64,000 bases of DNA, taken from a virus. Of this stretch, positions 1 through 57,940 are shown one piece after another (the stretch's first letter is position 1; every line of letters starts with the position of its first letter). Made by a program: the position numbers and the translations under genes. Under the pieces are notes generated by a model. The model had not been told where the DNA came from and made no database searches. It saw only the letters and a list, made by a program, of their open reading frames with translations. The DNA lies in the IMG/VR virus record IMGVR_UViG_3300020469_000036, positions 7,731 through 71,730 of that record. One strand, given 5' to 3'.

Positions 1-1
1 T

Positions 2-1483
2 AACAATTCTTAACATTCTCCACTGTCTTTCAGGATCATCGTAATGCAAAGGAATGCACGTTGCAAGTAAAAGAATGCCGCCGTTTAGAATTAATTCAAC
101 GGGCAACTTATACTCACAAAGCTTTTCAATAAACACCTTCTTTACAGTTTCGTTTTGAGAGGTGTTGGAAACAATAGCACTGTATCCATAGTAAACATCA
201 TGGGCGAGCTTACACCAGTCATAAAGGCTATCTCCAATGCAACCAATTTCTCCGCCGTAATTACCTCTTGGATCAATGAATTTAAACTGATTTGTGTAAT
301 GATTGTAAAGTATATTACCAAAATGAAAATCACCATGATGAACCGCTACACCAGTAACGCTATCCTGAATGGTAGATGCTATATTCATTAGTGTGGTTAC
401 TTCTTTAGGTTTAAGCGCCACATCAGCAAGACGGTCTTCAGCCTTTTTAATCCAAATGTTTTTAGAAAGATTTTGAAAGCGATCAGTTGTATCTTTATCT
501 TCAGAAATAGGAGAGGAAAAGTAATTAAACTTAATCCTAAACAACTTGTCCATAATAAAAGACCAGTTGGCTTCTGAAAGATTTTCATATTGCATGAGAT
601 CTGAAAGCAGTGAACCAGATTCATATGACATGATTAAATCCGTTTTATGCGGAAGGATTCTAGGAACAAACATGCTTTGCTCTGGCGTGATTGAGTTGTA
701 CCACAACCGCTCAGCATTTAAAGTTTCTACACTATGATTGGATTTATAATCAGGAGTCTTGGTAACGGTACCTAGATCATCGTTAAACGCAATGTTATTA
801 AACGCACGACTTTTAAGTTTAAGAAGCTTAGCACAAGTTTCGTGATAAACACTTAGAGTACCAATGTCATACCACTCAGAAGTTTGATGATTTGCAAATA
901 CAAAATCGTTACTAAGTTTTTCGTATCCTTTAAGAGCGTTAGAGATATCATAGTCATCCGACTCGTCAAATGCTTGAGCGGCCAATTTACCATTCTTAAA
1001 GGAATACAAACCAACCAACGCCATTGCCTTTTCAATGTTTTTCTCAGGCTTATCAAAATAATCACTACCGTTCCACATGCACCAAGAAGAATGGTTATCA
1101 ACCTGTTTGCATAGCAGAAAGTCTGAACCAAGAGGCATGTTTTCGGTTAAGATGATTGCATCACCCAGCCATACAACTGTGGGTCGGGAAACTTCAATTT
1201 CACCAAAGCCAAGAGCAATGGCAGGGCGGGGACCGTTAAGAGTCTTTTGCTTTACGAACTTAATGTCTGGATATTTCTTAGAGCAATACTCGCGAACATC
1301 ATCAAACTTACCGTCAACAATAACAACCTCTTGGATATCTGCGTGCTTTCTTGCATGCTCTATAATGTAATCAAGGCAGGGTTTACCGTTAACCCTTACC
1401 ATGATTTTAGACATGTTGTTTGAAAGTGGCTTTAAGCGAGTTGCCTCCCCCGCCGCAGGGATAATAAGATTAATCTTCTTCAT
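2..1483 (-). CDS. Sugar-phosphate nucleotidyltransferase fused to an APH/choline-kinase-like domain (BcbE/EcbE-like); 3' end runs off the window
   Basis: Not in the ORF track because there is no stop in the window. Manual translation from ATG 1483 gives MKKINLIIPAAGEATRLKP (NTP-transferase signature), WLGD, WYDIG, then C-terminal HGDFHFGNIL...IDPRG...YDWCKL (kinase-like motifs). Confidence 0.8.
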   Translation of the reverse strand, partial: MKKINLIIPAAGEATRLKPLSNNMSKIMVRVNGKPCLDYIIEHARKHADIQEVVIVDGKFDDVREYCSKKYPDIKFVKQKTLNGPRPAIALGFGEIEVSRPTVVWLGDAIILTENMPLGSDFLLCKQVDNHSSWCMWNGSDYFDKPEKNIEKAMALVGLYSFKNGKLAAQAFDESDDYDISNALKGYEKLSNDFVFANHQTSEWYDIGTLSVYHETCAKLLKLKSRAFNNIAFNDDLGTVTKTPDYKSNHSVETLNAERLWYNSITPEQSMFVPRILPHKTDLIMSYESGSLLSDLMQYENLSEANWSFIMDKLFRIKFNYFSSPISEDKDTTDRFQNLSKNIWIKKAEDRLADVALKPKEVTTLMNIASTIQDSVTGVAVHHGDFHFGNILYNHYTNQFKFIDPRGNYGGEIGCIGDSLYDWCKLAHDVYYGYSAIVSNTSQNETVKKVFIEKLCEYKLPVELILNGGILLLATCIPLHYDDPERQWRMLRIV

Positions 1484-1838
1484 TGTAATTCCAATCTTTA
1501 AATTGGTCAAGCGTCATTGACTTATCATCAACATAATATGTACTAGCATAAGGTTTACCAAAATGAATTTCATTATAAGGAACGTCATGACGAGATAACC
1601 AAGAAGTAGTTATAATGCCAATATCTGCGATGATCTTTTCAACATCTCCGTTATGCGTTAGCATTCTTCTAGCAGAAGAAAGAGTAATGTACCAACCATC
1701 ATCAGCCATCTGCTGCATCTTTTCAATAAGAGGAAGGTTGGGTTTGGCTAACCCATACTTTTCATAGCTATCTTTTTTAGAATGATCAGGAAAACAGATT
1801 GTGTCGTCAATATCAAAAACGATTGATTTTTCTTTCAT
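1470..1838 (-). CDS. HAD-superfamily phosphatase, EcbF/BcbF capsule-biosynthesis type
   Basis: FDIDDTIC motif I, SSARRM, GKP, YYVDDK; probable start MKEKSIVFD at 1838. Confidence 0.8.
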   Translation of the reverse strand: MKEKSIVFDIDDTICFPDHSKKDSYEKYGLAKPNLPLIEKMQQMADDGWYITLSSARRMLTHNGDVEKIIADIGIITTSWLSRHDVPYNEIHFGKPYASTYYVDDKSMTLDQFKDWNYNEED

Positions 1839-1842
1839 TATA

Positions 1843-3123
1843 TTACTTGATTGCAATTTCTTTAAGGCCTTTAAGCAGAGTTGTATTCATGTATGTACCG
1901 TCATAGTACTCATCTTTAAGAGCTTTATCAATAGCGTCCTTTAATTGATTGTATGCATCTGGGTTTTCTTCAAGAAACTCAATCTTATCAAAAAGATCTT
2001 TTGAATCTGTTACACGAAGAAAGGCAGGAACATTTAAGTGCTTTTGCTCATCGTAAGTTGGATGCAAGAATGGGATTATTCCATAATGGGCCATCTCCCA
2101 AAACTTAGCTGTAACCCATCCCTTTTTTATCGGAATACAAAAGGTATACTTAACTCGAGGAAGCATACTTTGCAATTCATTAAACTTCTTAGGTCCTTTA
2201 AATCTGTTATCGTCTCCAATGGTATCGGGATTCCATTTGCCATAGATATCAACATCCTTTACGTGGTCAAGTATATACTTTTTTAAATCAGGATAACGGG
2301 ACTTTGGTAATCCTTCATTACACACAACCATAAAGTTAATATCCTTTACGTTATCTTCTACCTCTTCAGGCGCATCAGAGAAAAACGAATCAAGAGAACC
2401 TTCCTGTTGCACTATAGCTTCCCCGCGCCTTTTACCAATAAGGAATATTGTTTCCATTGCTTTATACTCTTGGGGAATCTTTGTTGTGATGTCCTTTACC
2501 GAGTCGTATTCTTCTGGAGCGGTGTGTTCACAAATCTGATTGTATTGCGAATAAATCTTTTTAGGCGGATTCATCAAGTCACGCATCTTCCCAGGGTAAA
2601 GACGAGGATCATTTAAAACCATAATCCACGGAAGGTCTTTATAGGTATTTAAATAGTGAATGACTGGACCTGCATACAACTTCTGAGCATCAAGAGGAGT
2701 CGCAAGCTGAGATCGATTCTTTCTCTGCCTAGCCCATCCTGTAACATTAGAAGTTGCGACCAACCCCTGCAACATGATAGCAGCATCAACTTTTAAGTCA
2801 GGGTTGGTAAGAATAAATTCCTCCATAAATGCTTGGTTACCGTCAGGGCGAACCACGCCATCCCTTGCCATAAAAACGTCCGTCTTCCATTTCCCGAGTC
2901 CAGTCCATACGTCAATAAAGTTACGATGTTCGTTTATGCGTTCTTTATCTGCAAGAGGCAATCGAGAATAATCACTTTGACCCAGCATAATAAAAGTGTG
3001 CTGAGGATTATTACGAATAAGGTTTTCATACAAGATTGGAGCTTCATTATCTCCACCTACTGCTCCCCAGCTTTCGCTGTTAAACAATACTGACCTTCCA
3101 ATTTTTCCGATACCAATTTTCAT
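1843..3123 (-). CDS. DNA glycosyltransferase, T4 beta-glucosyltransferase-like (GT-B)
   Basis: NDPRL, KIYSQ and WVTAKFWEMAHYGIIPFLHPTYDEQKHL...RVTDSKDLFDKIEFL align by eye with T4 BGT (TDIRL, KVISQ, FITLRVWETMASDAVMLIDEEFDTKHRI...YVNNRAELIDRVNEL); located near gp42. Confidence 0.75.
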   Translation of the reverse strand: MKIGIGKIGRSVLFNSESWGAVGGDNEAPILYENLIRNNPQHTFIMLGQSDYSRLPLADKERINEHRNFIDVWTGLGKWKTDVFMARDGVVRPDGNQAFMEEFILTNPDLKVDAAIMLQGLVATSNVTGWARQRKNRSQLATPLDAQKLYAGPVIHYLNTYKDLPWIMVLNDPRLYPGKMRDLMNPPKKIYSQYNQICEHTAPEEYDSVKDITTKIPQEYKAMETIFLIGKRRGEAIVQQEGSLDSFFSDAPEEVEDNVKDINFMVVCNEGLPKSRYPDLKKYILDHVKDVDIYGKWNPDTIGDDNRFKGPKKFNELQSMLPRVKYTFCIPIKKGWVTAKFWEMAHYGIIPFLHPTYDEQKHLNVPAFLRVTDSKDLFDKIEFLEENPDAYNQLKDAIDKALKDEYYDGTYMNTTLLKGLKEIAIK

Positions 3124-7403: not shown

Positions 7404-7609
7404 TAAAGCAAAAACTTTCCAATAATGCCAACCGCGGTCATTGCTCCGTTGGTGAAGATGATTGGCTTGTCCTTCATTCTAATACCTGCGGCAAGCCAAA
7501 TAAGACCGCCAAGGATTTGAAGATACCAACCTGTAGAAACACCTGCACTGAATAAGCCAAAGCCACAAATAAGAATGGCTGTTGCCGCCCATTTCAAAAC
7601 ACTGGTCAT
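7403..7609 (-). CDS. Small membrane protein
   Basis: 68 aa with three hydrophobic segments; TAATG coupling to the halogenase. Confidence 0.6.
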   Translation of the reverse strand: MTSVLKWAATAILICGFGLFSAGVSTGWYLQILGGLIWLAAGIRMKDKPIIFTNGAMTAVGIIGKFLL

Positions 7610-7614
7610 TAGAT

Positions 7615-7899
7615 TTACTTGATAATACCAACAGCTTTCAGCTTACCTTTACCCCAGTCTTGTCCCAGCCTTTTAATATCTGCAGGGGTAAGGTCTTCAA
7701 CGATATATGTTTTACGTCCAAGTTTTACTTCTGTTTTTGCGGGTGTTTCTTCAACAGGTTCTTCTTCGATAATAATATCTTGCTCGCCGCCCAGCGGTGC
7801 TTCATCTTCATCACTCGTGAATTGAGGAGCAACTGGTTGTTGGTTTATAAGGGCATCTTGGCCGCTGTTCCATCCAAAGATTCTTTTAAGTAGTCTCAT
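7615..7899 (-). CDS. Hypothetical protein
   Basis: 94-aa ORF in the gene run, acidic middle. Confidence 0.55.
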   Translation of the reverse strand: MRLLKRIFGWNSGQDALINQQPVAPQFTSDEDEAPLGGEQDIIIEEEPVEETPAKTEVKLGRKTYIVEDLTPADIKRLGQDWGKGKLKAVGIIK

Positions 7900-7911
7900 A
7901 GCTTTTATTTA

Positions 7912-8850
7912 TCATGTGTTTTGTAATGCCCATTCAATTGCGCGGGAAGCTTCTTTTTTAAATGGTCGGTTCTTATACCATTCTCCAGTTTCATTATCAA
8001 TCTCTTTTGATAAAGATTCGATTTGTTGAGGAGTAATTGGGTAACCTTTTTTAATTGCGCTTACAGCAATAGAGCTCATGATAGCATACATCTTAGCATA
8101 CCAACCTGTTTCTGAAATGCACCTGTATTCACTTACAAGCGTTTGATTAACAAAAGGACAGTCGTGATAAGAAGACCATTGATAACTTGTATTGTTAAGT
8201 TGATCTCTTTTATACGCCATTAGCTTTTCTTGCATTTCAGCACTTAGCTTGGACTTAAATGAAGAAGAATTGGGCTCTGCAAAAGGATGCTTTTTCAAGA
8301 GATCCTCGCAGTTAAGGAATGGCGCATCACGATGAAACTCAATGAACTGATAAGAATTAGGATACTGCGCGGGTACGTAATACATGCGTGAAAGATCCTT
8401 TGTTTGCGGATCACCTAGTTCGTTGTATTCTTTATTAAGAGCAAACCAAAAGTGCTTTATCTTATCAGCAGCAATGGGCTTGTCGCATGGAATAACAATA
8501 CGAAACTTTGGATTCTCTTTTGTGCTGCTTGCCGATGAATAACAAATATGACGAATACCTTTAAAACTTTCCAGTGCTTCTTCAAAGGTACATTCATAAT
8601 CATCAATGTCAAGAGCAGCCCATCCGCCCCAGCCCAATACATTTACATTACGCCGCTTTTCACCAGGCTTATATACAGCTGGGCTAATAAGAGGAGAGCT
8701 TTTTCCGCGCTCACCTTTCTTAGGCTTATACCCAGGCTGCTGACTCAACCCTTGCAGGAGAGACTCAAATTCTTCCCACGTCTTGAACGCCATTCTACGA
8801 TGTGTAGAATTGTCAAAGATTGAGTTGAATATTGTAAGAGAGTATTCCAT
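7912..8850 (-). CDS. AEP-superfamily primase/primase-polymerase-like protein
   Basis: AALDIDD (DxD), YSSASS...PKFRIVIP, DPQTKDLSRMYYVP, helical C-terminal domain. Confidence 0.65.
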   Translation of the reverse strand: MEYSLTIFNSIFDNSTHRRMAFKTWEEFESLLQGLSQQPGYKPKKGERGKSSPLISPAVYKPGEKRRNVNVLGWGGWAALDIDDYECTFEEALESFKGIRHICYSSASSTKENPKFRIVIPCDKPIAADKIKHFWFALNKEYNELGDPQTKDLSRMYYVPAQYPNSYQFIEFHRDAPFLNCEDLLKKHPFAEPNSSSFKSKLSAEMQEKLMAYKRDQLNNTSYQWSSYHDCPFVNQTLVSEYRCISETGWYAKMYAIMSSIAVSAIKKGYPITPQQIESLSKEIDNETGEWYKNRPFKKEASRAIEWALQNT

Positions 8851-8852
8851 TC

Positions 8853-9260
8853 TTATACGCCAGTAAGCGTACCGTGGTTACCTTCATGGCTAGGGTTTTC
8901 CCATTCTTCTGGCTTCACGAGATCTGGGAGCCCAAGAGGATTGGGCCGTTCTTCTTTGATACCAACTTCTTTTGACATGTTTGCCTTATGAACTGCATCC
9001 CATGCTTTATAAGCGTCAACGCCAAAGGCATCAAGGGTTCCGATTGCGACAACGCACAAGTCAATCAACCCATCCACTACTTCTTCTGCATCAACATCAT
9101 AAACCGCAGCGGACTTTGTTTCATCAAGTTCTTCATCAAGAAACCTTAACCTGAACTCAAGAAACTCTCTTAGCTTCTTTTTATCAAAGTCTTTAATAGC
9201 TTCGTGTACACCGAACTTACGGTGCATATCATTTATGTCTTTTACCCAGTCTTTACTCAT
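8853..9260 (-). CDS. MazG-like (d)NTP pyrophosphohydrolase
   Basis: EELDET...EVVDGLIDL, VHKANMSK, LVKPEEW. Confidence 0.8.
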   Translation of the reverse strand: MSKDWVKDINDMHRKFGVHEAIKDFDKKKLREFLEFRLRFLDEELDETKSAAVYDVDAEEVVDGLIDLCVVAIGTLDAFGVDAYKAWDAVHKANMSKEVGIKEERPNPLGLPDLVKPEEWENPSHEGNHGTLTGV

Positions 9261-9279
9261 AGTTGTTATATAGATTTAA

Positions 9280-11757
9280 TTATCCAAAAAATTGTTCAAG
9301 GTCGGCCACAGGTTCTGCGTGCCAGCCAATTGCGTCGAGAATCATCTTAATAGGATCAACAAACGTTTTATTAAACTGCAGATCATAATCAATGTAACGA
9401 TCAAGTTCAAGCTCAGTTGGAAGGTGATCGGGAAATGATATCACGTTCTGCTGAATAGGGTTCGGCTTTTTGAGATATATAAACTTAATCTTATCCCCAC
9501 TTTGAATAAGTGGAAACTGTTTGTTTAAGCCGCGATCTTTAATAGCTTTGTTATACAGTAACGAACCTCGAACATGAATAGGAGTACCCTTTTCAAAAAT
9601 TGTACTGGCGTTGGCCCATTTGCGAATAGCATTAACTCCACGAGGAAAGGCAACCTTATCAGCAGACAGTACACTAAAATGCGATTTGAAAAGTTGAATT
9701 GCTTCTTGTGTTTTACCTTCATCACCAGTCATGATTATCTTGAACATTGCGTTCATGGCTTCACGACAGACTTGAGGAGTTGAACTTTTGATAGCTTCAA
9801 TACCCATGATCTTGATCTTAGGTTCTGCATACTGAACACCTTCATTGTTATGAACGTTAAGAATGTATCGTTTCTTTGCAGTCCAGATTCCACGATCAGC
9901 AATGGCCTCTCGCTTCATTACCATACGGTTGCAATATGCAGATGAATCTTCAGCGAATTTATCAAAGGCTTCTGCCAACATTGGCTCGATAGCTTTACTG
10001 CCAAACTCGTCAAGAAAGGCAACAGGATCTTTTGGCTTGAACTTGTCAATCACATCTTTCACGCCAATGTATAAAGAGTCGGTATCAATCGCAATAACCC
10101 TATCCTTCTTTTCTTTAAGAAAGTCATCGAGAAAGTCGTTAACTTTTTCTTCAGCATACTTGATAACAGCTTGGCCGGTAAGAGTGATTCCAGACGCAAT
10201 GCGAAGATCAAAGTAGCGAAAGTACTTGTTACCACACGCACCGTATAATGAGTTAAGAAGAATCTTTACCGCCGTTTGAGAAGTATCAAGTCTTGCCACA
10301 TCACTTTCTGCCGCCTTTCTTGCCGCTCGATCCGACTTGGAAACTTTCTCCAGGCTGCGTTTTGCGGCAATCATTTCATCTTTAATGTCGACCCTTTTAT
10401 CGTAAAGCTCTTCAACAATCGCTGGGATGATACCCTTTTTAGCTGTACTAAATACTGCACCATTTGATGCCTTTGCACCAATAGGATCTTTCATCTGCAG
10501 CAGTGTTTCGGGCGACATGTTATATTGAACAATAAGATTGGGATACAAGGAGTTAAGGTCAAACGACATAACCCAGTCATGCATACCAACGTGAGGTTCC
10601 TTTACAAAACCGCCAGGGAATGTTTCGGAATAGTTTTCTTTACTTGGAGTTACGGCAATCTTTTTCTTTGCCAACCGCCGAAAGATAATGCTGTCCCATA
10701 TCGCAGTGGTGCCAAGCGTGTCGGTGTAATTCACTCCACCTAGATAAGCCATGGTTAAAACCAATGTGATAAGACCTAGCTTTTCTTCCATGCGATCTAC
10801 CAGCTCAACGTCCTTGATATTATAATCAACAAACATTTGATAGTCGGCATCATAAAGATCTCGGAGTGTACCAATCTCTGAGTAGTCAAGTTTCTTCTCG
10901 CCAAGAACCACACTCGCAATATGATTAAGTGAATAAGACTCTTGGTTACCATAAGTGTAAGCAAACTTTTTAAAGAGTTCCATATAGTCCAGTGACTGAA
11001 CTCCGCTTATATCAAAAGTAACCTGTGTCTTACCCATGATAGTAATCTCTCGGCGATCAATCTTACCCCAAGGAGAAAAGCTTTTAGCAATATCCTCGCC
11101 AAGTAAAACGGCAGAGCGAGAAACAAGATAAGGAATATCAAAGAACCTTGTATTCCAACCAGTGATAACATCTGGAGTGTATTCAGGTTGGGACCAATGA
11201 TCAATAAAGTCGTGAAGCATCTCAGCCTCAGATTCAAACTGGCGATATTCGATTTGCAAGTGAGTTAGTTTGGAGGCGGCAACATCATAAGGCTTTATAC
11301 CCCATACACGATACCGATCTTCACGACTTGACTTGTAAGCGATTGTGAGGATCTCGTTTGTAGGATTATCAACCTCGGGAAAACCATCGCCGTAACTTGT
11401 CTCAATGTCAAGAGAGGCAACGTCAATGTTTGCGCGAGAGTAATTTATCTCATCGGGAAACTGACTTTGAATAAAGGCAGGAATGTGGCGAGTGTTGCCA
11501 TAAAGCTTAAAGTCGGCTACCCCGTCGTAAGTCTTTTCAAACTGACGTACTTCAGACATTGACTCGAACCGCATGGGCTCAACTGGAGTACCATCAAGGG
11601 CCTTCCATTCCGTGACATCGTTTTTGGACTGAAGGAAAAGCTGGGGGCGATACCTAATCTTGTGTCTTACTTTATTTCCCTGATCGTCATAACCTCGGTA
11701 AAGCAGTTGATTACCAAAGCGGTCGACACAAGTATAAAAACCTTCTATTGTAAGCAT
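9280..11757 (-). CDS. gp43: DNA polymerase, family B
   Basis: Exonuclease motifs DIET, GWN..FFD, YNIKD; polymerase motifs SFDLNSLYP, KILLNSLYG, DTDS, KKRY. Confidence 0.97.
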   Translation of the reverse strand: MLTIEGFYTCVDRFGNQLLYRGYDDQGNKVRHKIRYRPQLFLQSKNDVTEWKALDGTPVEPMRFESMSEVRQFEKTYDGVADFKLYGNTRHIPAFIQSQFPDEINYSRANIDVASLDIETSYGDGFPEVDNPTNEILTIAYKSSREDRYRVWGIKPYDVAASKLTHLQIEYRQFESEAEMLHDFIDHWSQPEYTPDVITGWNTRFFDIPYLVSRSAVLLGEDIAKSFSPWGKIDRREITIMGKTQVTFDISGVQSLDYMELFKKFAYTYGNQESYSLNHIASVVLGEKKLDYSEIGTLRDLYDADYQMFVDYNIKDVELVDRMEEKLGLITLVLTMAYLGGVNYTDTLGTTAIWDSIIFRRLAKKKIAVTPSKENYSETFPGGFVKEPHVGMHDWVMSFDLNSLYPNLIVQYNMSPETLLQMKDPIGAKASNGAVFSTAKKGIIPAIVEELYDKRVDIKDEMIAAKRSLEKVSKSDRAARKAAESDVARLDTSQTAVKILLNSLYGACGNKYFRYFDLRIASGITLTGQAVIKYAEEKVNDFLDDFLKEKKDRVIAIDTDSLYIGVKDVIDKFKPKDPVAFLDEFGSKAIEPMLAEAFDKFAEDSSAYCNRMVMKREAIADRGIWTAKKRYILNVHNNEGVQYAEPKIKIMGIEAIKSSTPQVCREAMNAMFKIIMTGDEGKTQEAIQLFKSHFSVLSADKVAFPRGVNAIRKWANASTIFEKGTPIHVRGSLLYNKAIKDRGLNKQFPLIQSGDKIKFIYLKKPNPIQQNVISFPDHLPTELELDRYIDYDLQFNKTFVDPIKMILDAIGWHAEPVADLEQFFG

Positions 11758-13660: not shown

Positions 13661-13679
13661 AATCTTATTTATATTCTTA

Positions 13680-15820: not shown

Positions 15821-15893
15821 TGGAGGCACGGAGATTTGAACTCCGGACCGCCTGCTTGCAAAGCAGGTGCTCTACCAACTGAGCTATACCCCC
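15821..15893 (-). tRNA. tRNA-Ala(UGC)
   Basis: GGGGGTATAGCTCAGTTGGTAGAGCACCTGCTTTGCAAGCAGGCGGTCCGGAGTTCAAATCTCCGTGCCTCCA; G3:U70 pair, anticodon TGC, CCA not encoded. Confidence 0.95.
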
Positions 15894-27650: not shown

Positions 27651-27666
27651 GTTTTTATTTATAAAG

Positions 27667-32421: not shown

Positions 32422-32477
32422 GTTGTTATTTATATTGTTTTAAGTCTTAAGTATTTAAAGTGTTACATATTTTCTAT

Positions 32478-38626: not shown

Positions 38627-39403
38627 TTATGGGGAATCATCCCATATTACGTTTGGATCAGGAGGGCCACCAATTTCAATCACAACAGTGTTGGATTCGG
38701 GTGTATCGGTACTTGAACCCGTTCTTACCCTAACACCAGCATCGGTATAACGTTTCGAAGTATCAAAGTCATTAAAGAAAGTATCCACGGACTTGATAAG
38801 ACCGGTGGTTTGAGGGTTACTCGTGAACTTGGTTTTAACGCTAAAGGTTAGTGTGTAAACTATAAGACGTCGAGAAGATTCAAAGTCTCCTTCATACGCA
38901 TCTTCTGCGCTTACGCCTGATAACGTTATTGGTACATCTGTTATACTTTCAGGACCTTCAAGACCTTTAACGCTTAAAGTATAATTAGGATTAAAATGCG
39001 GAACAATTTGCTCAAGTATCTGAAGAGCTTCATCCTGTCCTCTTGACATAATGTTCAGTGAAAAATCAAGAGTGTATGGTACGCATTGATTTACTTTAAC
39101 TTTATTTCCTTCACTGTCAGTTTGAACATTTCGGTTTAAACGATTTAACTTGGTGGATTGGTCAAAGCTCAATCCTGTCATTTCAAACGACATGCGGGGT
39201 AGTCTAAGTGCAACGTCCCGCTCCGCCCGAGCTTCAACTCTGACCAGATATTTTTCCTTTGGAGCATAAGCAAGTGGAACCCGCCTTGCGCCAATTAATT
39301 TACCAGCATCAAGCTGCGCTATTTGAATGTCATTAAACATTTGACCAAAAGCAGCAACCATATTCTTTATGGTTCCATTGTAAAAGTATTCGTGTCCAAG
39401 CAT
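38627..39403 (-). CDS. gp15: Tail sheath stabilizer/terminator, paralog A
   Basis: YFYN.TI...V.AFG..FNDI, VPLAYAPKEKYL, LPRMSFE, DEALQILEQI.P.F.P. Confidence 0.92.
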   Translation of the reverse strand: MLGHEYFYNGTIKNMVAAFGQMFNDIQIAQLDAGKLIGARRVPLAYAPKEKYLVRVEARAERDVALRLPRMSFEMTGLSFDQSTKLNRLNRNVQTDSEGNKVKVNQCVPYTLDFSLNIMSRGQDEALQILEQIVPHFNPNYTLSVKGLEGPESITDVPITLSGVSAEDAYEGDFESSRRLIVYTLTFSVKTKFTSNPQTTGLIKSVDTFFNDFDTSKRYTDAGVRVRTGSSTDTPESNTVVIEIGGPPDPNVIWDDSP

Positions 39404-39411
39404 AATCTTAA

Positions 39412-40140
39412 TTAGGTTCCAGGCTTAGTTCCAATAACCGTACTGGTTTCAGTTACTCTTACTCCAGCATCAACATACACGCCGTTGGTGTCAAAGTCGT
39501 GGAAGAAAGTATCAACCGTTTCTATAAGGCCAACTGACGACGGGTAAAACGCAAACTTTGTTTTAAGTGAGAATGTTAGAGTATAAACTATAAGTCGGCG
39601 AGAAGATTCAAAGTCTCCTTCATATGCGTCTTCAAAGTTAACACCTACAAGACTAATAGGAACATCAGTTTTACTTTCAGGACCTTCAAGACCTTTAACA
39701 GTAAGAGAATAATGTGGACTAAAGTGCGGTAGTATTTGTTCTACTATTTGCAAAGCTTCATCCTGTCCTCTTGACATGATATTCAAATCAAATCCCAACT
39801 CATAAGGAGCGGGTTGCCATACTTTAACTTTACTTTCTGGACTACTTGTAGCATCAGTTTGAATTGTTCTGTTTAAACGATTCAGCTTTGTGGTTTCATC
39901 ATAAGAGATGTCTGTCATTTCAAATGACATGCGGGGAAGCTTGAGCGCAACGTCCCGCTCCGTTTCTTCTTTAACTCTCGCTAAATATTTTTCTTTCGGC
40001 GCATATGCAAGAGGTACCCGTTTAACACCAACCATCTTCCCTCCACTAATATTGGCCACTTCAAGGTCATTGAAGATTGTGCCAAAAATAGACACAATCT
40101 TCTTTAGTGTTTCATTATAAAAGTATTCGTTACCTAACAT
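39412..40140 (-). CDS. gp15: Tail sheath stabilizer/terminator, paralog B
   Basis: Same motifs as the adjacent copy. Confidence 0.92.
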   Translation of the reverse strand: MLGNEYFYNETLKKIVSIFGTIFNDLEVANISGGKMVGVKRVPLAYAPKEKYLARVKEETERDVALKLPRMSFEMTDISYDETTKLNRLNRTIQTDATSSPESKVKVWQPAPYELGFDLNIMSRGQDEALQIVEQILPHFSPHYSLTVKGLEGPESKTDVPISLVGVNFEDAYEGDFESSRRLIVYTLTFSLKTKFAFYPSSVGLIETVDTFFHDFDTNGVYVDAGVRVTETSTVIGTKPGT

Positions 40141-40142
40141 AC

Positions 40143-41087
40143 TTAGAAGTTAAAAGGTTCTCCAAACGGATTCTCTTCGCTAAAGTCAAGAAAGTCGCCA
40201 ACGTTAACAGCCTGACTAAAGGTCGAGTTTTGAGCTCCGTGATCATTTCCAAAAAGCTCGTCATCATCAGCAGTTCCATCACTTATCAGATTAATATTGC
40301 TAGCGGTTACACTTGCTCCAGATGTTTGGCCGGTGAGTACTGTTCCCGTTACCAACGTGTGATACTTCCCATCGTTAAAGGTAGGAGGACTTACGTGAAT
40401 CCTTTGCAGCTGCGGAGAGTCGGTTGTAGTACTGTACTTAAAGAACTCGCACGAACCTGTAACCCCACTCGGAAGAGTAAAGTTGAGTGTTTCAAATTCT
40501 TGTAGTAACTGCTCAGGCGAGTCATTGTTGGTATACTCTAAAATCTGAGAATCACCAGCCACAGCTTGTATGTTATCAACTTCCCTTATGCCGGTATCAA
40601 TCTCTTGGCTTTCGTATTCGAACAACTCACAAGAAAGTCTAAAAATAGGCAAGTCTTTAAGTTGAGCAAAAGGTTTCTTATCCTCAACAAATTTGATTTC
40701 AAACAATCCTTTGGTCAAGGGGAAGTATATAAGGTCTCCTTCAAGCGGACGAGTACTGTTCTCTGAATACCCGTGTCGACCTATAAGTTGATTCCAGCGA
40801 AGATTTGAAACAACCAAGTTAACGCTGTCTCGAATCTCAAGACCAAACTTAGAAAGTAATTGCCCATCACCTTCAAAGCCGTCAACGCTTTCAACGTACA
40901 TCTCAATCTGATAAGCCTTTTCAAACGCGCTTATAAGATCTTCGTTAAGAATAAGATCCCGCTTAACAATTTTACGAGGAATGTAAAAACAATCTTGACC
41001 ATATATTTGAATGGCCTCGATTATCAGCGACTCGTAAAGATCTTGCTCTTGCTTAGATCCGTTTTGAAAGTATTGATTAGTTGCCAT
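40143..41087 (-). CDS. gp14: Neck protein
   Basis: EQDLYESLIIEAIQIYG, SKFGLEIRD, RP.EGDLIYFP, DFSEENPFG. Confidence 0.95.
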   Translation of the reverse strand: MATNQYFQNGSKQEQDLYESLIIEAIQIYGQDCFYIPRKIVKRDLILNEDLISAFEKAYQIEMYVESVDGFEGDGQLLSKFGLEIRDSVNLVVSNLRWNQLIGRHGYSENSTRPLEGDLIYFPLTKGLFEIKFVEDKKPFAQLKDLPIFRLSCELFEYESQEIDTGIREVDNIQAVAGDSQILEYTNNDSPEQLLQEFETLNFTLPSGVTGSCEFFKYSTTTDSPQLQRIHVSPPTFNDGKYHTLVTGTVLTGQTSGASVTASNINLISDGTADDDELFGNDHGAQNSTFSQAVNVGDFLDFSEENPFGEPFNF

Positions 41088-41833
41088 TATCCGATAAATA
41101 GGTCAACGGGTTCTTCGTATTTAAGCTGCCACGTTTCTTTAAGCGCTTGAATATCAGCAGTAGCCTGTTCGTATATTGTAGCTCCACTGATTGTAACTCC
41201 TCCTGGAAGTTGCATACCTTCAAACTTACTAAGGTTCTGACCCCACTGCTTTTTAATAAGAAGCGTAAGAAGTTCTTTTAAACCCATGTCATCGAAAACA
41301 TCTGTATAAGAAGCAGGATCTACGGTTTGATAGGTTTCAAAAATAATAAATTCGCCTTCTGCTACATGGTCTTTAATGTCCGCGTAAAACTTTACAGTAT
41401 TCTTGTGACGGTTAAAAGCCATTTGTGTTCCATGCCCGTTGAGAATATCTTCAACCAAGCTCATGTATTGAGAAGTAAGCTCGTAGTTTAAAAGACCGCC
41501 GGGGTTTCTCATTCCAAAGAAGTCATTAAGATACATCTGATATTTCGCATTGAATAAAGATGCACTGGTAAAGTCTTCAAAACCAAGAACCCGAACAACA
41601 GCAATAACAGCATCGGGAACTTCAATTTCGTTACTCGTGAGTTCAGCTGCAGTTACCTGGTGTTTGATCAATGTTTTGACGGTAGCATCGCTGTGATACT
41701 CTTGCCAAAATTGAATCGCTTCATCAATACGATCTTCAATTTGATCGTCATCAATATTGATTTCAACCACAGGAGCTCCAAGCGCTCTTAAACAGTAGTC
41801 AGCTAATTCGGTTCTAGTTGTTGGTTTAGCCAT
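41087..41833 (-). CDS. gp13: Neck protein
   Basis: YCLRALGAPVVEIN.DDDQIEDRIDEA, KKQWGQNLSKFEGMQLPGGVT. Confidence 0.96.
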   Translation of the reverse strand: MAKPTTRTELADYCLRALGAPVVEINIDDDQIEDRIDEAIQFWQEYHSDATVKTLIKHQVTAAELTSNEIEVPDAVIAVVRVLGFEDFTSASLFNAKYQMYLNDFFGMRNPGGLLNYELTSQYMSLVEDILNGHGTQMAFNRHKNTVKFYADIKDHVAEGEFIIFETYQTVDPASYTDVFDDMGLKELLTLLIKKQWGQNLSKFEGMQLPGGVTISGATIYEQATADIQALKETWQLKYEEPVDLFIG

Positions 41834-41860
41834 ACAACTATTTATATAGTTTAATTCTTA

Positions 41861-42076
41861 TTACTTACACCTTCTTCTACCAATTTGAGAAGACAGCAGA
41901 ACGGTAATAAAGACCACAAGACCCATGAGAATATCATCAGTGGAATCCTTTAGCATTTGAGATGGCAGTTCAAGATCGTTAAACTTTTCTCTATACCAAA
42001 CACAAGTTCCAAGTAAAGCTTTATATGAAAAGATACCAACGATTGAAAGCAAAAATATTCTAGTAAAGGTTTTCAT
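41861..42076 (-). CDS. Small two-TM membrane protein
   Basis: Two hydrophobic segments and a basic C-terminus. Confidence 0.6.
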   Translation of the reverse strand: MKTFTRIFLLSIVGIFSYKALLGTCVWYREKFNDLELPSQMLKDSTDDILMGLVVFITVLLSSQIGRRRCK

Positions 42077-42079
42077 TAA

Positions 42080-42400
42080 TCATTTCCGAATAAATCGCGA
42101 AGGATTCTTTGCGATCCTTTTAGCCAAAGTAACAATGCCTTCAATTACTTCTGGTGATATAACACCAACAATTCCATAAATCACAGCTTTATACAAACTA
42201 TCAATTGATGTTTGCTCTAGTATGTACCACGCAATCCCACTTGATATAGCAGCGGCTGGAATCCGTTTACAAAGAAGCTGAGCGGTAATACTTTCCTTTG
42301 AAGAAAGAATTCTTGCGATCATACCCGCCGCACCAATAAGTGGAACCAACCAACCTCCATCTAAGAAGGCCTGGATTAATGATTTTTGGGGCTCTTGCAT
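42080..42400 (-). CDS. Holin-like three-TM membrane protein
   Basis: Three hydrophobic segments, basic C-terminus, late promoter TATAAATA at 42419-42426. Confidence 0.55.
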   Translation of the reverse strand: MQEPQKSLIQAFLDGGWLVPLIGAAGMIARILSSKESITAQLLCKRIPAAAISSGIAWYILEQTSIDSLYKAVIYGIVGVISPEVIEGIVTLAKRIAKNPSRFIRK

Positions 42401-42449
42401 ATTTGCGGTGGTATCAAGTATTTATACAAAGTCTTCTCTTAACATTGTA

Positions 42450-43205
42450 TTAAATATAGTTTTTTAACAAATCATTAGCTTTCGTGTAAAGCCTTGGACA
42501 CCTTACATTATCCTTACCCATGATTGTTTCTAAAATTGCTGACGCCGCGATAATTACAGAAAGCCTGTCAACAAGTACTATTTCAAAGTTGTGAATTGCA
42601 GCTTCATAAATCTCTTTTGAATATTCTGCGTCCTGCCCTGTCACATAACACGCTCCCAACACATTTACCATTGCTGCAGGCCATAATTTAATATCAGCAA
42701 AGGAATGTATCTTATTGAAAAAATTTAAAGCCTCGTTGACATTTCTTTCTTTTACATAGCAATGTGCCAGTGCAGTCCAAATTGAGGTGATCCAACGATA
42801 AGTAAATTTACGCCAATAAGGATCATTGAATTCTTTGAAACCTTGCAGGTCTTTATAAAGACTTTCCAGCTCATCAATAGATCCCATGTCGTCATAAATG
42901 TATCGATAAGCAAGTGTACAAAAAGACTGACTTACAACTTCAAATTTATCGGGATAGATCTGAGCTAAAAGAAAAGCCCGACATCTTTGGTACCCTGCCG
43001 GATCGTCGTTTCTACCTTTAAAGTTTCTTACAAACCTTTTGGGGTTATAACGAAGGCCTTCTAACATTCGGTTAAATTCATCAAGATCCAAACCCGGAAT
43101 AATCAGATCATTATCAGGAAGGGATGAATAGTCAAACGAAAGCTTAGTATCCTTATAGGTTATAAAAACACTATTTTCTTTCCAAGAAATATTAGGGACC
43201 ATCAT
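42450..43205 (-). CDS. Hypothetical helical (TPR-like) protein, third gene of the GT operon
   Basis: WTALAHCYVKERNVNEALNFF TPR-like helix pair; overlaps the stop of the sulfotransferase gene. Confidence 0.6.
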   Translation of the reverse strand: MMVPNISWKENSVFITYKDTKLSFDYSSLPDNDLIIPGLDLDEFNRMLEGLRYNPKRFVRNFKGRNDDPAGYQRCRAFLLAQIYPDKFEVVSQSFCTLAYRYIYDDMGSIDELESLYKDLQGFKEFNDPYWRKFTYRWITSIWTALAHCYVKERNVNEALNFFNKIHSFADIKLWPAAMVNVLGACYVTGQDAEYSKEIYEAAIHNFEIVLVDRLSVIIAASAILETIMGKDNVRCPRLYTKANDLLKNYI

Positions 43206-44181
43206 TTTCGGAGGTATTATTAAGTTGATCTGAAAGTTCTTTAACCTTATCTTCAAGCTGGTCAATACGACCCATGGCTTCAATAGAGAAGATGATTGCT
43301 TGGTCCACCAGTCTTTTGTAATCTTCTTCGCTTATCTTCCGTTCTTTAGGGGGCGGGTCATTTTGAAACGAGATAGATTCGTCTCTCAGAATCATCGCTA
43401 ATCTTTCTATGTCTTTTAACGAAAAATAATTTTTTGAATACTCTTGAACGCTACCGTAGTTTACATACGTGTCAAACTTGTGAGGTGTGACGGGGTCTGA
43501 ATACGTATTATTATAGATAGCTCTCGACAAAATTTCAGATGATGATGGAGTTTCATACGCTCGGATTCGTGGAAGGTCTAAGCCCGTAACCTCACAGAAG
43601 TCGTCAATAATATTTTCCCCTTCTTTATATTGTCTAATTTCAGCAATTTTTCTCCACCACTTCCAACTGTTATAAGTTCCAGCGCCAAATTCATGAAACC
43701 ATCGACGTAAAGTCATTGAGCGTAAAATCTTTTCGTCCATCCTCCTTCGCCGCTCAAATATTTTGCCTTCAAGAACTTTATGTCTAAGACCCCACTGCTC
43801 CCATGCTGACTTTAGCCACTGCCCGGGCGCTCTAACATAAAGTATAATCTGAACATCAAGATCAGGTGACCAGGTCGAAAGATGTCTAAGTAACTTAACA
43901 GCTTCTGGGGTATTGGATATTGCTTCGTTTGACCAAAAAACGTGATCACAGCCGGTCTTCTTTGAATGAGAGACAATAATCTTATACAATGCTTTGGTCT
44001 TTTCTGCGGTGTGCTGCGAAACTAACCACTCGTGATTCATTCGATTCCCATCGGGTAAAATTGGCCACAGCCTTCCCAGACCCGTTTTACCCGCCGTAAG
44101 ATTTCCTTTATACTCTTGTAATGCAAACTGAATTGCACTTGTTCCGGTTTTACCTAAACCGATATGTGCTGTAAACTTCAT
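43192..44181 (-). CDS. Sulfotransferase-like protein
   Basis: HIGLGKTGTSAIQ (PAPS 5'-phosphosulfate loop type), SNE, YVR.P...LKS.W.Q (3'-phosphate motif). Confidence 0.75.
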   Translation of the reverse strand: MKFTAHIGLGKTGTSAIQFALQEYKGNLTAGKTGLGRLWPILPDGNRMNHEWLVSQHTAEKTKALYKIIVSHSKKTGCDHVFWSNEAISNTPEAVKLLRHLSTWSPDLDVQIILYVRAPGQWLKSAWEQWGLRHKVLEGKIFERRRRMDEKILRSMTLRRWFHEFGAGTYNSWKWWRKIAEIRQYKEGENIIDDFCEVTGLDLPRIRAYETPSSSEILSRAIYNNTYSDPVTPHKFDTYVNYGSVQEYSKNYFSLKDIERLAMILRDESISFQNDPPPKERKISEEDYKRLVDQAIIFSIEAMGRIDQLEDKVKELSDQLNNTSENDGP

Positions 44182-45338
44182 CCAATTAATCTTTCTACCT
44201 TTTCATCCCAAACACTCTTAGAGAATTTTTCGTTAACTAGTTTTCTAGCAGAGTGAATTTTCGACCTACTTTGACCTGTTAGGTGGAAGTAAAGAAGTTC
44301 CGCGTATTTTTTTGCTTCATCCTCTATCTCAAAATCAATCAAATAGTTTAAAGGAACCAGTTCGCTTACAGCACCAACATTACTAACAGCCATTGGAACT
44401 GACCACTGCATTGCTTCAAAATATGTAAGAGGTATACCTTCGTCAACCGAAGGGCAAACAAGCGCACTGGCTCGTTTATAATACTCTTGCATTTGTTTAT
44501 AATCAATACCTTTCTCAAATTGTATCCAGTGGCTAACTTTCAGTTTCGCTGCATGTTCTTTAATGTCTGTATAAAGCGGGCCGTCTCCAACAAACTTAAA
44601 AACCGGCATATAAGCGGCAGGTAAAAGCTTAGCCAACTCTGCAGCAATATCACAAACAAACTTAGGACGTTTTTGAAAGTGAAAGCGGAAAGGACATAGT
44701 ACGTACCTGGGATCTTTATCTGTTTTCCTTAAAGGCCAAGTCTTTTCTATCTCAGGAAACCCGAACCAATAAAGGGTTTCAATCATTCTTTTATTTACGC
44801 CTTTTTCAATAAGTTCATTCTTAAGCTTATCCGAAACAGTTAGTACCAAATCAAAAGGAGTTCCTTTTTGAAGGCTTTTCTCAAAGTCCCAAGGTTCTTT
44901 TAAAATCATGTGAAACAAAGAAATTAACTTTGTATTTGGCGCAGCTTCTTTTATTGCCCAAGCTTGATCATAAGCTTCATGCGAATTATTGACAACCGTG
45001 TAAACGGGTTGCAGCTTTCTAACGATTTCTATAACCTCACCGGCACAAATAACGTCGTCAGCAAGTTCGGTAAATGCAGATTCCCTTCGGCTTTCTTTAT
45101 GCGGCATTATCCGCGTTGTTATAATGACGATTCTAAAGCCTCTGTTTTTATAATGCAGCATTAAATCCAAGCCGCATCTATCCGCTCCTCCGAGCGACAT
45201 CCAAGGGATGATAAGACAAAAGACGGGCTTTTCTTCAGTGTGCTTTGACTGAGATTTTAGAATGACCGGTTTTTTACCAAGTGCATGGCGGGACGGTCGA
45301 GATGTTTGGCGTTCAGTTCTTTTGGACCTTCGGGACAT
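44178..45338 (-). CDS. Glycosyltransferase family 4 (GT-B)
   Basis: GGADR, R...QKRP, VGDGP, PSVDEGIPLTYFEAM, SNVGAVSELV. Confidence 0.9.
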   Translation of the reverse strand: MSRRSKRTERQTSRPSRHALGKKPVILKSQSKHTEEKPVFCLIIPWMSLGGADRCGLDLMLHYKNRGFRIVIITTRIMPHKESRRESAFTELADDVICAGEVIEIVRKLQPVYTVVNNSHEAYDQAWAIKEAAPNTKLISLFHMILKEPWDFEKSLQKGTPFDLVLTVSDKLKNELIEKGVNKRMIETLYWFGFPEIEKTWPLRKTDKDPRYVLCPFRFHFQKRPKFVCDIAAELAKLLPAAYMPVFKFVGDGPLYTDIKEHAAKLKVSHWIQFEKGIDYKQMQEYYKRASALVCPSVDEGIPLTYFEAMQWSVPMAVSNVGAVSELVPLNYLIDFEIEDEAKKYAELLYFHLTGQSRSKIHSARKLVNEKFSKSVWDEKVERLIG

Positions 45339-45354
45339 ATATTATATATATGCC

Positions 45355-46569
45355 TTAGTAATCAGCTGCATCAAAGTAAAGACGAACTCGAAGGAAGCCA
45401 CTAACAGAATCAAGTCCACTAGTACCAGATGGATCATTACTAGGATGGCCATTCTGGATAACCTTTATGTTAATGCCATCCCCGGCGGCAACTGCTACAC
45501 TTACAGCACTGCTTGCTCCAGTGTAAATTTGTCCTCGGTGCGATCCAGTATCATGTGCAAGCGGGGTTGTTGGATTTCCGTCAACTGTCACCGTTGTTAA
45601 AGTTACAGCTGTTGGGCTATCATCAGGATCTCCCACAGTAATAGCAAACTCAGGATCGCCCTGATCTGACGCGACAACTGCCCATGCTGGAATATCAATT
45701 TCTGCTTTACGGAATGTCATTGCAGTGTTAACACCCATAAAGAAAGCAGTCTCATTTACTTCCAATGGATCCACGACATTAGCCGAAGATTTAAAATCGG
45801 AAACAGGCATATCCAACGAGTAAACATAAGGGCGAACACTAATAGCACCAGCGGCTCCAGTCGCGCCTTGAACACCTTGAGCACCAGTTGGTCCAATAGG
45901 ACCTGCAAGACCTACACCAGTGGGCCCCGTAGGACCAGTGGGTCCAGTTGCGCCTTGACTTCCGGCAGGACCCGTAGGACCAGTTAAACCTGTGGATCCT
46001 TGAGGACCAACTACACCAGCAATTGCGCCAAGGTCATCCCATTCTTCTGGAGAATTATCAGGCCCTTTATATGCAAAAAGGTGAGGGGTTCCACTTGCAA
46101 ATTCATCACCTGGGGAATCAGATAAACTCCCTGGGCCAATCTTAACAATAAAACATGTACCTTCTTTTTGAAGCTCATCAGCAAGAGGATTAGGACTTGA
46201 ATAAGAAACAGGAAGGTCATCACCATAGTCAACAACACCAGCAATCGCTACACCAACACCAGGGTCTCCTTTAACATTACCAATCACTTCTGTTGAAGAA
46301 TCGGACTTGACCTTTGATACATTACCGTCAGAGTCAACAGTAATATCTGTAATAATAGCAATAGTATCAAGGTATTCATTTACTTCTCCAGCAACCTCAC
46401 TTGTGATATTAAGGTTGTTTGTTACCAAATCACCATTTTCGTTAAGGAAAAAGATTTTTTGATCGGCGGCATTAAACGCAATTTCACCGTCTCTTAGTGA
46501 ATCGACATTCGGAGATTCTCCAGATGAAAAGGAGTGTTTTAAAATAATTCTTGTAGGTGTAGTAGCCAT
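45355..46569 (-). CDS. Collagen-like fibre protein
   Basis: N-terminal I.LK.S...G..P....L.DGEIAFN..D fibre domain; G-X-Y run at about 45844-46018. Confidence 0.8.
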
Positions 46570-57913: not shown

Positions 57914-57940
57914 AATGTTATTTATATATGTATTAAGAGA

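Follow-up and report, generated by a model that had tools for sequence, protein, structure and literature searches.

A 64-kb window of viral DNA, taken out of a 71.7-kb IMG/VR contig (IMGVR_UViG_3300020469_000036; estimated completeness about 40%), carries a compact three-gene cassette that, judging from the families of its predicted products, very probably forms a unit for building a glycan and giving it charge. The genes encode a glycosyltransferase (GT) of family GT4, a divergent sulfotransferase-like protein of the type that uses 3'-phosphoadenosine 5'-phosphosulfate (PAPS), and a helical protein resembling tetratricopeptide repeat (TPR) proteins. A more specific reading, in which the cassette is modular, is expressed late and makes an anionic glycan with virion proteins as its target, is the best supported, at odds that seem to us about even. 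The source is an uncultured marine T4-like phage near Kyanoviridae, placed there because its neck protein gp14 shares 41% identity with that of Methylophilales phage Melnitz and 36-38% with those of cyanomyoviruses. The cassette genes are the following:

44178-45338, minus strand: glycosyltransferase of family GT4 (GT-B; 386 aa), whose N-terminal tail is basic and which carries an E-x7-E motif (E300-E308)
43192-44181, minus strand: sulfotransferase-like protein of 329 aa, PAPS-type and divergent, whose C-terminal helix or coiled coil is conserved
42450-43205, minus strand: TPR-like protein of 251 aa, helical apart from a small beta-sheet at the N-terminus

The open reading frames (ORFs) overlap head to tail, by 4 nt (ATGA) between the GT4 and sulfotransferase genes and by 14 nt between the sulfotransferase and helical-protein genes. 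A first reading of this DNA (hereafter the sequence-only reading) had described three overlapping genes between fibre and neck genes, and the minus-strand ORFs confirm that arrangement. Almost all genes of the window lie on the minus strand, and the GC content of the cassette (0.38-0.43) is similar to that of the flanking genes. All three genes are under purifying selection, with ratios of nonsynonymous to synonymous substitution of 0.13-0.30 against three to four sister loci (0.13-0.16 for GT4, 0.17-0.30 for the sulfotransferase and 0.15-0.21 for the helical protein).

The assignment of the 386-aa protein to the GT4 family, a prediction from domain models, is solid. Two Pfam models matched well above their cut-offs, Glycos_transf_1 (60.4 bits vs. 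26.4, E 2.1e-16) and Glyco_trans_1_4 (57.8 bits vs. 27, E 2e-15). The N-terminal model Glyco_transf_4 scored 26.2 bits, below its cut-off of 28.5; precomputed Pfam annotation places this domain in one relative of 93% identity (P0194) and one of 45% (P0217), not in most close homologues, and it exceeded the cut-off in two of seven scanned relatives (P0218 and P0219). The E-x7-E motif is characteristic of retaining GT4 enzymes, and both of its glutamates, E300 and E308, do not vary across 20 sequences and are also conserved in the fusion proteins described below. Neither this protein nor the sulfotransferase contains a hydrophobic segment. Among 50,697 phage records, a collection from which the window's own record may be absent, tblastn found nine matches to GT4, all distant, and none to the sulfotransferase; a megablast search of the cassette region against the same records returned no match.

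Several weak and concordant lines of evidence support the 329-aa protein as a predicted divergent PAPS-type sulfotransferase. Enzymes of this type bind PAPS through a 5'-phosphosulfate loop (P-loop-like, GxxKTGT/S) and a 3'-phosphate motif, R-x7-S. All of 20 close sequences share the GKTGT loop (residues 10-14) together with R117...S125. Across 41 distant relatives (22-32% identity), G10, K11, T12, N85, E86, R117 and S125 are all invariant, and G13 and T14 nearly so. With a profile built from the 20 close relatives, 1153 cluster representatives were retrieved (E<=1e-3). Precomputed annotation lists PF17784 for some of the close relatives, and the distant relatives matched Sulfotransfer_4 in 23 of 41 cases (E<=0.01, best 4.9e-6) and Sulfotransfer_1 in 5 of 41. 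The AlphaFold2 model (mean predicted local distance difference test score, pLDDT, of 73.8) had SULT2A1, TPST and NDST as its top Foldseek matches in the PDB, with zeta-toxin kinases among them (E 3e-3 to 4e-2; template modelling, TM, score 0.3-0.4). In a library of viral structures the best match was a Mimiviridae ChoanoV1 protein (E 5.5e-5), followed by named viral sulfotransferases, with that of S-SCSM1 among the matches. The family profile gave only chance-level matches against PDB sequences, an NCBIfam scan of the protein found nothing, and neither did a PHROGs scan of the sulfotransferase and the helical protein. Both enzyme assignments had been made in the sequence-only reading: that of GT4 is amply justified, and that of the sulfotransferase gains support from the motifs, the family-wide Pfam matches, the fold matches and the profile-profile match given next, each weak and all in agreement.

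The two activities appear physically joined elsewhere. The nearest outgroup relatives of the phage GT4 are fusions that combine the glycosyltransferase and a sulfotransferase domain in one protein (P0218-P0227 in the GT4 search; 539-586 aa, 30-38% identity to GT4). Precomputed Pfam annotation shows both GT4 and Sulfotransfer_4 in nine of these ten, P0225 having GT4 only, and direct Pfam scans confirmed the double architecture in five of six. Profile comparison with hhalign aligned the phage GT4 to the glycosyltransferase part of the fusions at a probability of 100% (E 1.6e-81), and the sulfotransferase family to the fused Sulfotransfer_4 domain at 90% (E 1.7e-6), covering both PAPS motifs. This second relationship was found by profile comparison only, a BLASTP comparison of the window sulfotransferase with fusion P0220 giving no significant similarity.

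A comparable coupling is seen in bacteria, whose relatives of the sulfotransferase share 25-30% identity with it (80 loci retained from 132 relatives, mainly Rhodobacteraceae). In all three Rhodobacteraceae loci inspected for this (L010, L012 and L017), the relative lies directly behind an ORF of about 860 aa, which contained RgpF in both of the two scanned and also Glycos_transf_1 in L017; a fourth inspected locus, L014, lacked such a glycosyltransferase neighbour. BLASTP found no similarity between the phage GT4 and the 857-aa Sulfitobacter glycosyltransferase, and in tblastn searches of the 80 bacterial loci the phage GT4, helical and membrane proteins showed no conserved co-occurrence with the sulfotransferase relatives. 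Together, the fusions, the bacterial coupling and a pyruvyl transferase swap in sister phages point to GT4 and the sulfotransferase acting jointly on a sugar, as far as gene architecture can indicate.

A single viral locus (L089) was found for the fusion. At its positions 7593-9320 it encodes a 575-aa GT4-Sulfotransfer_4 protein, with a TylF-type O-methyltransferase, an Erv1/Alr oxidase, an SNF2 helicase and a 982-aa intein-bearing gene as neighbours. These neighbours make the contig look like a giant virus, and its gene content suggests a giant virus of eukaryotes with a sugar-sulfating enzyme of its own.

We found the cassette on 16 distinct IMG/VR contigs, and its composition varies among them. 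With ST denoting the sulfotransferase-like gene, ST2 and ST3 the Sulfotransfer_2 and Sulfotransfer_3 genes and HEL the helical-protein gene, the variants are:

GT4-ST-HEL: the window, L003, L004 and L090-L094 (L002 begins inside ST)
GT4-ST2-ST-ST3-like: L005 (L006 has the same spacing by BLAST, its ORFs not having been inspected)
GT4-ST-ST3-like-HEL: L007
GT4-HEL-pyruvyl transferase: L098 and L099
GT4-ST-short HEL-pyruvyl transferase: L100

The pyruvyl transferase of these sister phages is a polysaccharide pyruvyl transferase (PS_pyruv_trans). When the additional L005 proteins were compared with the 50,697 phage records, the Sulfotransfer_2 protein had two matches and the Sulfotransfer_3-like protein had none (tblastn). 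The common denominator of the variants would be a negative charge placed on a sugar, whether as sulfate or as a pyruvate ketal. In its surroundings, the upstream neighbour is a collagen-like fibre gene in all 11 loci where it is visible, and downstream, wherever visible, two membrane-protein genes are followed by gp13. The region has a mosaic structure: between L091 and the window, identity is 100% for the neck genes and 99-100% for the membrane proteins, 86% for HEL, 81% for GT4, 55% for ST and 55-59% for the fibres, so that the cassette varies together with the fibres. In Melnitz, P-SSM7, S-SM1 and C48C1 the slot is empty, and fibre or structural genes run straight into gp13.

The setting of the cassette is that of a late structural module. 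Its glycosyltransferase gene lies among structural and late genes, both in the window and in each of the 11 sister loci whose upstream gene is visible. The surrounding features of the window are:

45355-46569, minus strand: collagen-like fibre gene directly upstream of GT4 (Pfam Collagen E 1e-7; PHROG tail-fibre families)
45343-45350, minus strand: TATATATA, which agrees with the late-promoter consensus TATAAATA at 7 of 8 positions and lies 4 nt ahead of the GT4 ATG
42419-42426, minus strand: an exact copy of TATAAATA, separated by 18 nt from the start of the gene for the 106-aa membrane protein
42080-42400, minus strand: small membrane protein of 106 aa, with hydrophobic windows and weak Pfam and PHROG holin matches (E 0.002-0.04)
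41861-42076, minus strand: small membrane protein of 71 aa, with hydrophobic windows and no family match in Pfam or PHROG scans
41087-41833, minus strand: gp13-like neck gene, downstream of the cassette
40143-41087, minus strand: gp14 neck gene, downstream of the cassette

Further upstream of the cassette lie a 1215-aa and an 1814-aa fibre. The GT4 start follows the fibre stop after no more than 16 nt, a gap so short that the cassette is probably transcribed together with the late fibre genes, with or without TATATATA. That element occurs four times in the window against 1.1 expected (at least four in 5 of 100 shuffles), and all four copies stand 4-11 nt ahead of minus-strand start codons; taken alone, it is weak evidence of a promoter upstream of GT4. 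Of the exact consensus TATAAATA there are 11 copies where 3.9 were expected, every one of them on the minus (coding) strand, and the copy at 42419-42426 is predicted to mark a separate late start just past the cassette. Scans for intrinsic terminators and sigma-70 promoters between 39 and 51 kb stayed at chance level and gave no convincing terminator. Inspection by eye showed early-type TTTACA-N17-TATAAT promoters ahead of genes between 3.5 and 25 kb and none ahead of the cassette genes. The late-module setting put forward in the sequence-only reading is confirmed, the late-promoter-like motif is present where that reading placed it, and gene order suggests that the cassette is likely co-transcribed late.

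Two side observations concern the promoters themselves. In five genes, exact TATAAATA stands 5 nt before the ATG (13666-13673, 27656-27663, 32427-32434, 41839-41846 and 57919-57926, minus strand). T4 transcription starts a few bases past the late-promoter octamer, and the five late mRNAs would be nearly leaderless if the start spacing is as in T4. An early-promoter-like element, (A/T)TTTAC(A/T)-N17-TATAAT, precedes many early genes between 3568 and 25000 on the minus strand, for example upstream of 3924, 4627, 6044, 11757, 15063, 16812 and 24765, often with shared flanks.

If virion proteins are the target, some feature of them might mark the acceptor, and the tripeptide D-S-P is a candidate. 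It is the most over-represented tripeptide among the late ORFs of the window (n=30), with 16 occurrences against 2.6 +/- 1.6 expected, a count reached in 0 of 300 shuffles; DDSP occurs 8 times against 0.2 expected. The early ORFs hold one D-S-P against 1.2 expected (reached in 208 of 300 shuffles). The same count in other phages, with the expected number and the shuffles reaching it, was as follows:

G001, a sister phage with the cassette and proteins 60-80% identical: 15 vs. 3.4, 0/300
Melnitz, without the cassette: 4 vs. 1.6, 21/300
P-SSM7, without the cassette: 3 vs. 2.1, 101/300
S-SM1, without the cassette: 1 vs. 2.2, 264/300
C48C1, without the cassette: 0 vs. 0.9, 300/300

The sites lie in the major head protein, the scaffold, the sheath (two), a gp15-like protein, gp14 (two), the collagen-like fibre (two), the 1215-aa fibre, a baseplate wedge protein (three) and an 821-aa structural protein (three). 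They are kept among sister phages despite changing flanks and are gapped or different in Melnitz. Thirteen different 9-nt codings are used, and serine is encoded by both TCN and AGY codons, which indicates selection on the protein; the idea of a by-product of a DNA motif was rejected on the same grounds. Both sheath sites fall in a stretch that does not align to solved T4-type sheaths and that we take to be outer domains. The collagen-like fibre, with two DSP and one NSP, is itself a candidate acceptor. Its G-x-y runs span residues 185-243 and include many GPT triplets. BclA, an exosporium protein of Bacillus, has GPT repeats whose threonine is O-glycosylated, and by analogy the fibre run is a conceivable second acceptor besides D-S-P.

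Two adjacent minus-strand paralogues, at 38627-39403 and 39412-40140, were both assigned to phrog_227, the family of the tail sheath stabilizer gp15 (E 2e-65 and 5e-67), and the one lying downstream has W-D-D-S-P at its extreme C-terminus.

For the helical protein, ATG 43205 is the most likely start, because 17 relatives begin at the equivalent position; a TTG start at 43283 was rejected for the same reason. Sequence models (Pfam, NCBIfam) did not find multiple TPR repeats. One repeat, at about residues 143-169, was matched below the Pfam cut-offs (PPR 20.2 vs. 25, TPR_8 16.6 vs. 25.7), and NCBIfam PPR (21.8 vs. 20) was the sole match to pass its cut-off. The AlphaFold2 model (pLDDT 66) has a three-strand sheet followed by 11 helices. 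TPR proteins were its top Foldseek matches (E 0.03-0.1), with OGT TPR domains among the weak matches, and the ESM Atlas placed it in a TPR_14 cluster at 0.93, with 174 shared features. A complex prediction of GT4 with the helical protein scored 0.00, which is uninformative either way. We treat its likeness to TPR proteins as a lead only.

Taking these results together, we propose the following mechanism. The cytoplasmic GT4 enzyme would move a sugar from a host- or phage-made nucleoside diphosphate (NDP) sugar to an acceptor hydroxyl, and the sulfotransferase would then add sulfate from PAPS to that sugar, as members of these families are expected to do. In sister phages, one to three sulfotransferases of different families, a pyruvyl transferase in the slot, or both, would likewise yield a negatively charged sugar. 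The TPR-like protein may serve as an accessory, adaptor or chaperone. The acceptor may be the serine of D-S-P, often within D-D-S-P-E/G, in exposed loops of head, sheath, neck, baseplate and fibre proteins; modification would take place in the cytoplasm, ahead of assembly or in its course, and would leave the particle coated with charged glycan. We favour a virion acceptor because of the late module, the soluble enzymes, the fibre co-variation and the D-S-P enrichment, and because no lipid-carrier machinery was seen. Both a sulfated glycan and a D-S-P acceptor on virion proteins had been suggested in the sequence-only reading. The GT4-sulfotransferase fusions and the extra sulfotransferases or pyruvyl transferase of sister phages strengthen the former as a hypothesis, and the specificity of the enrichment for this clade and for structural proteins does the same for the latter. 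Two other suggestions of that reading, a substrate-adaptor role of the helical protein and a coat that shields the particle or mimics sulfated polysaccharides, drew no support from any analysis made here. A bolder version, which we offer tentatively and consider rather unlikely, is a system of protein O-glycosylation across a clade of abundant marine T4-like phages, in which a soluble GT4 reads a D-S-P sequon on nearly every exposed virion protein, swappable tailoring enzymes set the charge, and surface chemistry diversifies along with the fibres, adding a second, glycan-based layer to host-range or anti-adsorption variation.

Several observations weigh against a charged glycan on virion proteins. 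The sulfotransferase-like protein's own Sulfotransfer_4 match (E 2.4e-4, 21.5 bits) falls just below the 22.8-bit cut-off, and its fold matches, at TM 0.3-0.4, are weak. The helical gene is replaced by a Sulfotransfer_3-like gene in L005 and is hence dispensable in some variants. PAPS-synthesis (APS kinase) and sugar-epimerase genes were not found on the contig, which is uninformative at its completeness of about 40%. The D-S-P correlation sets two related phages against four controls and may reflect a structural or other clade-specific feature; short sister contigs show weak enrichment only. One of the sites lies in the scaffolding protein of the head, a protein that mature T4-like particles would be expected to lack. 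Finally, the bacterial sulfotransferase relatives and the pyruvyl transferase family usually act on polysaccharide intermediates, and cyanomyovirus sugar genes are usually read as modifiers of the host surface (PMC12801897).

These last points favour the most serious alternative, which we nevertheless regard as unlikely: that the cassette alters a host envelope polysaccharide (O-antigen, capsule or exopolysaccharide) with a sulfated or pyruvylated sugar. The receptor would thereby be masked, limiting superinfection or keeping progeny off debris. In addition to the RgpF-type polysaccharide glycosyltransferases ahead of the bacterial relatives and the polysaccharide-modifying PS_pyruv_trans family, the best NCBIfam matches of GT4, all far below threshold, are exopolysaccharide and lipopolysaccharide enzymes, and the co-variation of cassette and fibres would equally suit a receptor-linked role. 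The cassette, however, has no flippase, polymerase, initiating transferase or membrane segment, and a lytic phage would hardly be expected to remodel the envelope from its late module. Such a role also leaves the D-S-P enrichment in structural proteins unexplained.

The sulfotransferase might instead modify a protein side chain directly (Tyr, Ser or Thr), or a small molecule or a lipid, with an unrelated GT4 acceptor and no sulfated glycan; we consider this improbable. Tyrosylprotein sulfotransferases do appear among its PDB fold matches (probability 0.95-0.97), a collagen-like fibre gene adjoins the cassette, and bacterial sulfotransferases have been predicted to modify collagen-like or tail-collar proteins after hydroxylation (Iyer et al., 2010, PMC2938197). 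The fusions, the bacterial coupling of glycosyltransferase and sulfotransferase and the replacement by a pyruvyl transferase point instead to a sugar substrate, and no hydroxylase was seen in the cassette.

Hypermodification of phage DNA with a sugar as protection from restriction, like the glucosylation of hydroxymethylcytosine in T4, is highly improbable: T4-like phages do glycosylate their DNA, phage GT-B enzymes can build DNA glycans (bioRxiv 10.1101/2023.12.21.572611), and a GT4-conflict Pfam match, weak and below cut-off in the window GT4 (E 0.0016), rises above it in the fused relatives, but the cassette lies in the late structural module and not in the early region, the main text of that preprint contains no word starting with "sulf", a PADLOC scan of five proteins gave no match, and a separate cluster in the early region resembles the published DNA-sugar pathway and would already fill the role. 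Early expression linked to base-modification genes, as for the T4 glucosyltransferase, is not what the cassette presents. The separate cluster, at 1-3123 on the minus strand and also in L102, is the second sugar-related cluster of the window. It encodes a 509-aa protein that runs off the left end, with an N-terminal NTP_transferase domain (E 4e-13) and a C-terminal half that looks kinase-like by eye, together with a HAD-like protein of 128 aa and a third protein, of 372-426 aa, whose weak match is GT10-like. A set of HAD/APH-like, cytidylyltransferase and GT-B proteins installs heptose on 5-hydroxymethylcytosine DNA (Pyle et al., bioRxiv 10.1101/2023.12.21.572611), and by analogy the cluster is probably a DNA-sugar modification pathway or a donor supply.

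Some features of the window lie beside these questions. The two small membrane-protein genes, which the sequence-only reading had overlooked, separate the cassette from gp13 and sit in the same clade-specific insertion. The 106-aa protein is 85-100% identical across sister loci, and the pair ranges from 60 to 100% identity among sister phages, reaching 99-100% in several with differing cassette genes; the two could be a lysis pair, or unrelated to the cassette. A lone tRNA-Ala gene (anticodon TGC) lies in the early region at 15821-15893 on the minus strand. At least 89% of the sampled words of a 6-kb stretch were present in 20 DNA runs from 12 studies, five of which runs may be the source sample, indicating that the phage is common; no RNA run was among the sequencing runs found to hold this stretch.

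The closest analogues of the cassette appear to be the fibril glycosylation clusters of Megavirinae, which include the pyruvyltransferase L143 of Mimivirus and, in Moumouvirus australiensis, the sulfotransferase Ma461 with the SAT/APS kinase Ma457 (PMC10117803). Those too are virus-encoded, clade-specific and swappable clusters of glycosyltransferases with a pyruvyl transferase or sulfotransferase, proposed to decorate virion surface proteins, and sulfation in them is likewise described as unverified (PMC10117803). The likeness extends to the proteins, as the nearest outgroup of the phage GT4 is the fusion on the giant-virus-like contig and the best viral fold match of the sulfotransferase is from Mimiviridae ChoanoV1. 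The virus here is instead a tailed phage, with a single glycosyltransferase and no adjoining genes for sugar-nucleotide or PAPS synthesis, and its putative acceptor is D-S-P across many structural proteins rather than a fibril protein.

Mycobacteriophage-encoded glycosyltransferases glycosylate capsid and tail proteins (Freeman et al., 2023, cited in PMC12619734), a use of the phage's own enzymes on virion proteins that we propose here as well. Those phages are actinobacteriophage siphoviruses, their glycans sit on the C-terminal parts of capsid and tail-tube subunits, and the citing text reports no sulfate or pyruvate enzymes (PMC12619734). Sulfotransferases have been annotated in marine phages, namely in OM43 phage genomes and Synechococcus phage S-SRM01, and their role in phages was called unclear (PMC10580990). 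These share the PAPS type with ours; they are single genes of Sulfotransfer_3 type treated there as metabolic, whereas here the gene is paired with GT4 in a structural module. The Rhodobacteraceae pairs contain a sulfotransferase of the same superfamily directly downstream of a glycosyltransferase gene, and differ in that this glycosyltransferase is the RgpF-containing protein of about 860 aa, not detectably similar to the phage GT4, and in that no fibre, helical or small membrane-protein genes accompany it. GtfA/GtfB of streptococcal serine-rich adhesins and the TPR-bearing OGT are soluble GT-B systems that glycosylate Ser/Thr in the cytoplasm with a non-catalytic partner or TPR domain. They resemble the cassette in combining a soluble GT-B enzyme with an accessory element, here putative, and OGT is among the weak fold matches of the helical protein; the putative partner here is a separate small TPR-like protein.

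To our knowledge, actinobacteriophages are the only phages documented to glycosylate their virions with enzymes of their own, and among other viruses this is documented only for giant viruses of eukaryotes. The sequence-only reading knew of no description of such an operon in T4-like phages, and our literature search, which left most subscription journals outside its reach, likewise found none for a GT4-sulfotransferase cassette in a T4-like structural module. So far as that search reached, virion glycosylation with sulfate or pyruvate tailoring has not previously been described for T4-like phages.

The cassette provides a functional context for phage sulfotransferase genes, whose role had been called unclear (PMC10580990). 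If our proposal is true, virion glycosylation would extend to T4-like phages infecting marine Gram-negative hosts, charged tailoring by sulfate or pyruvate would join the known repertoire of virion glycans, and D-S-P would become a candidate sequon open to direct testing. A charged glycan coat could change how readily the particle adsorbs to marine gels and sulfated polysaccharides, how stable it is, how it fares under grazing and how hosts are recognised.

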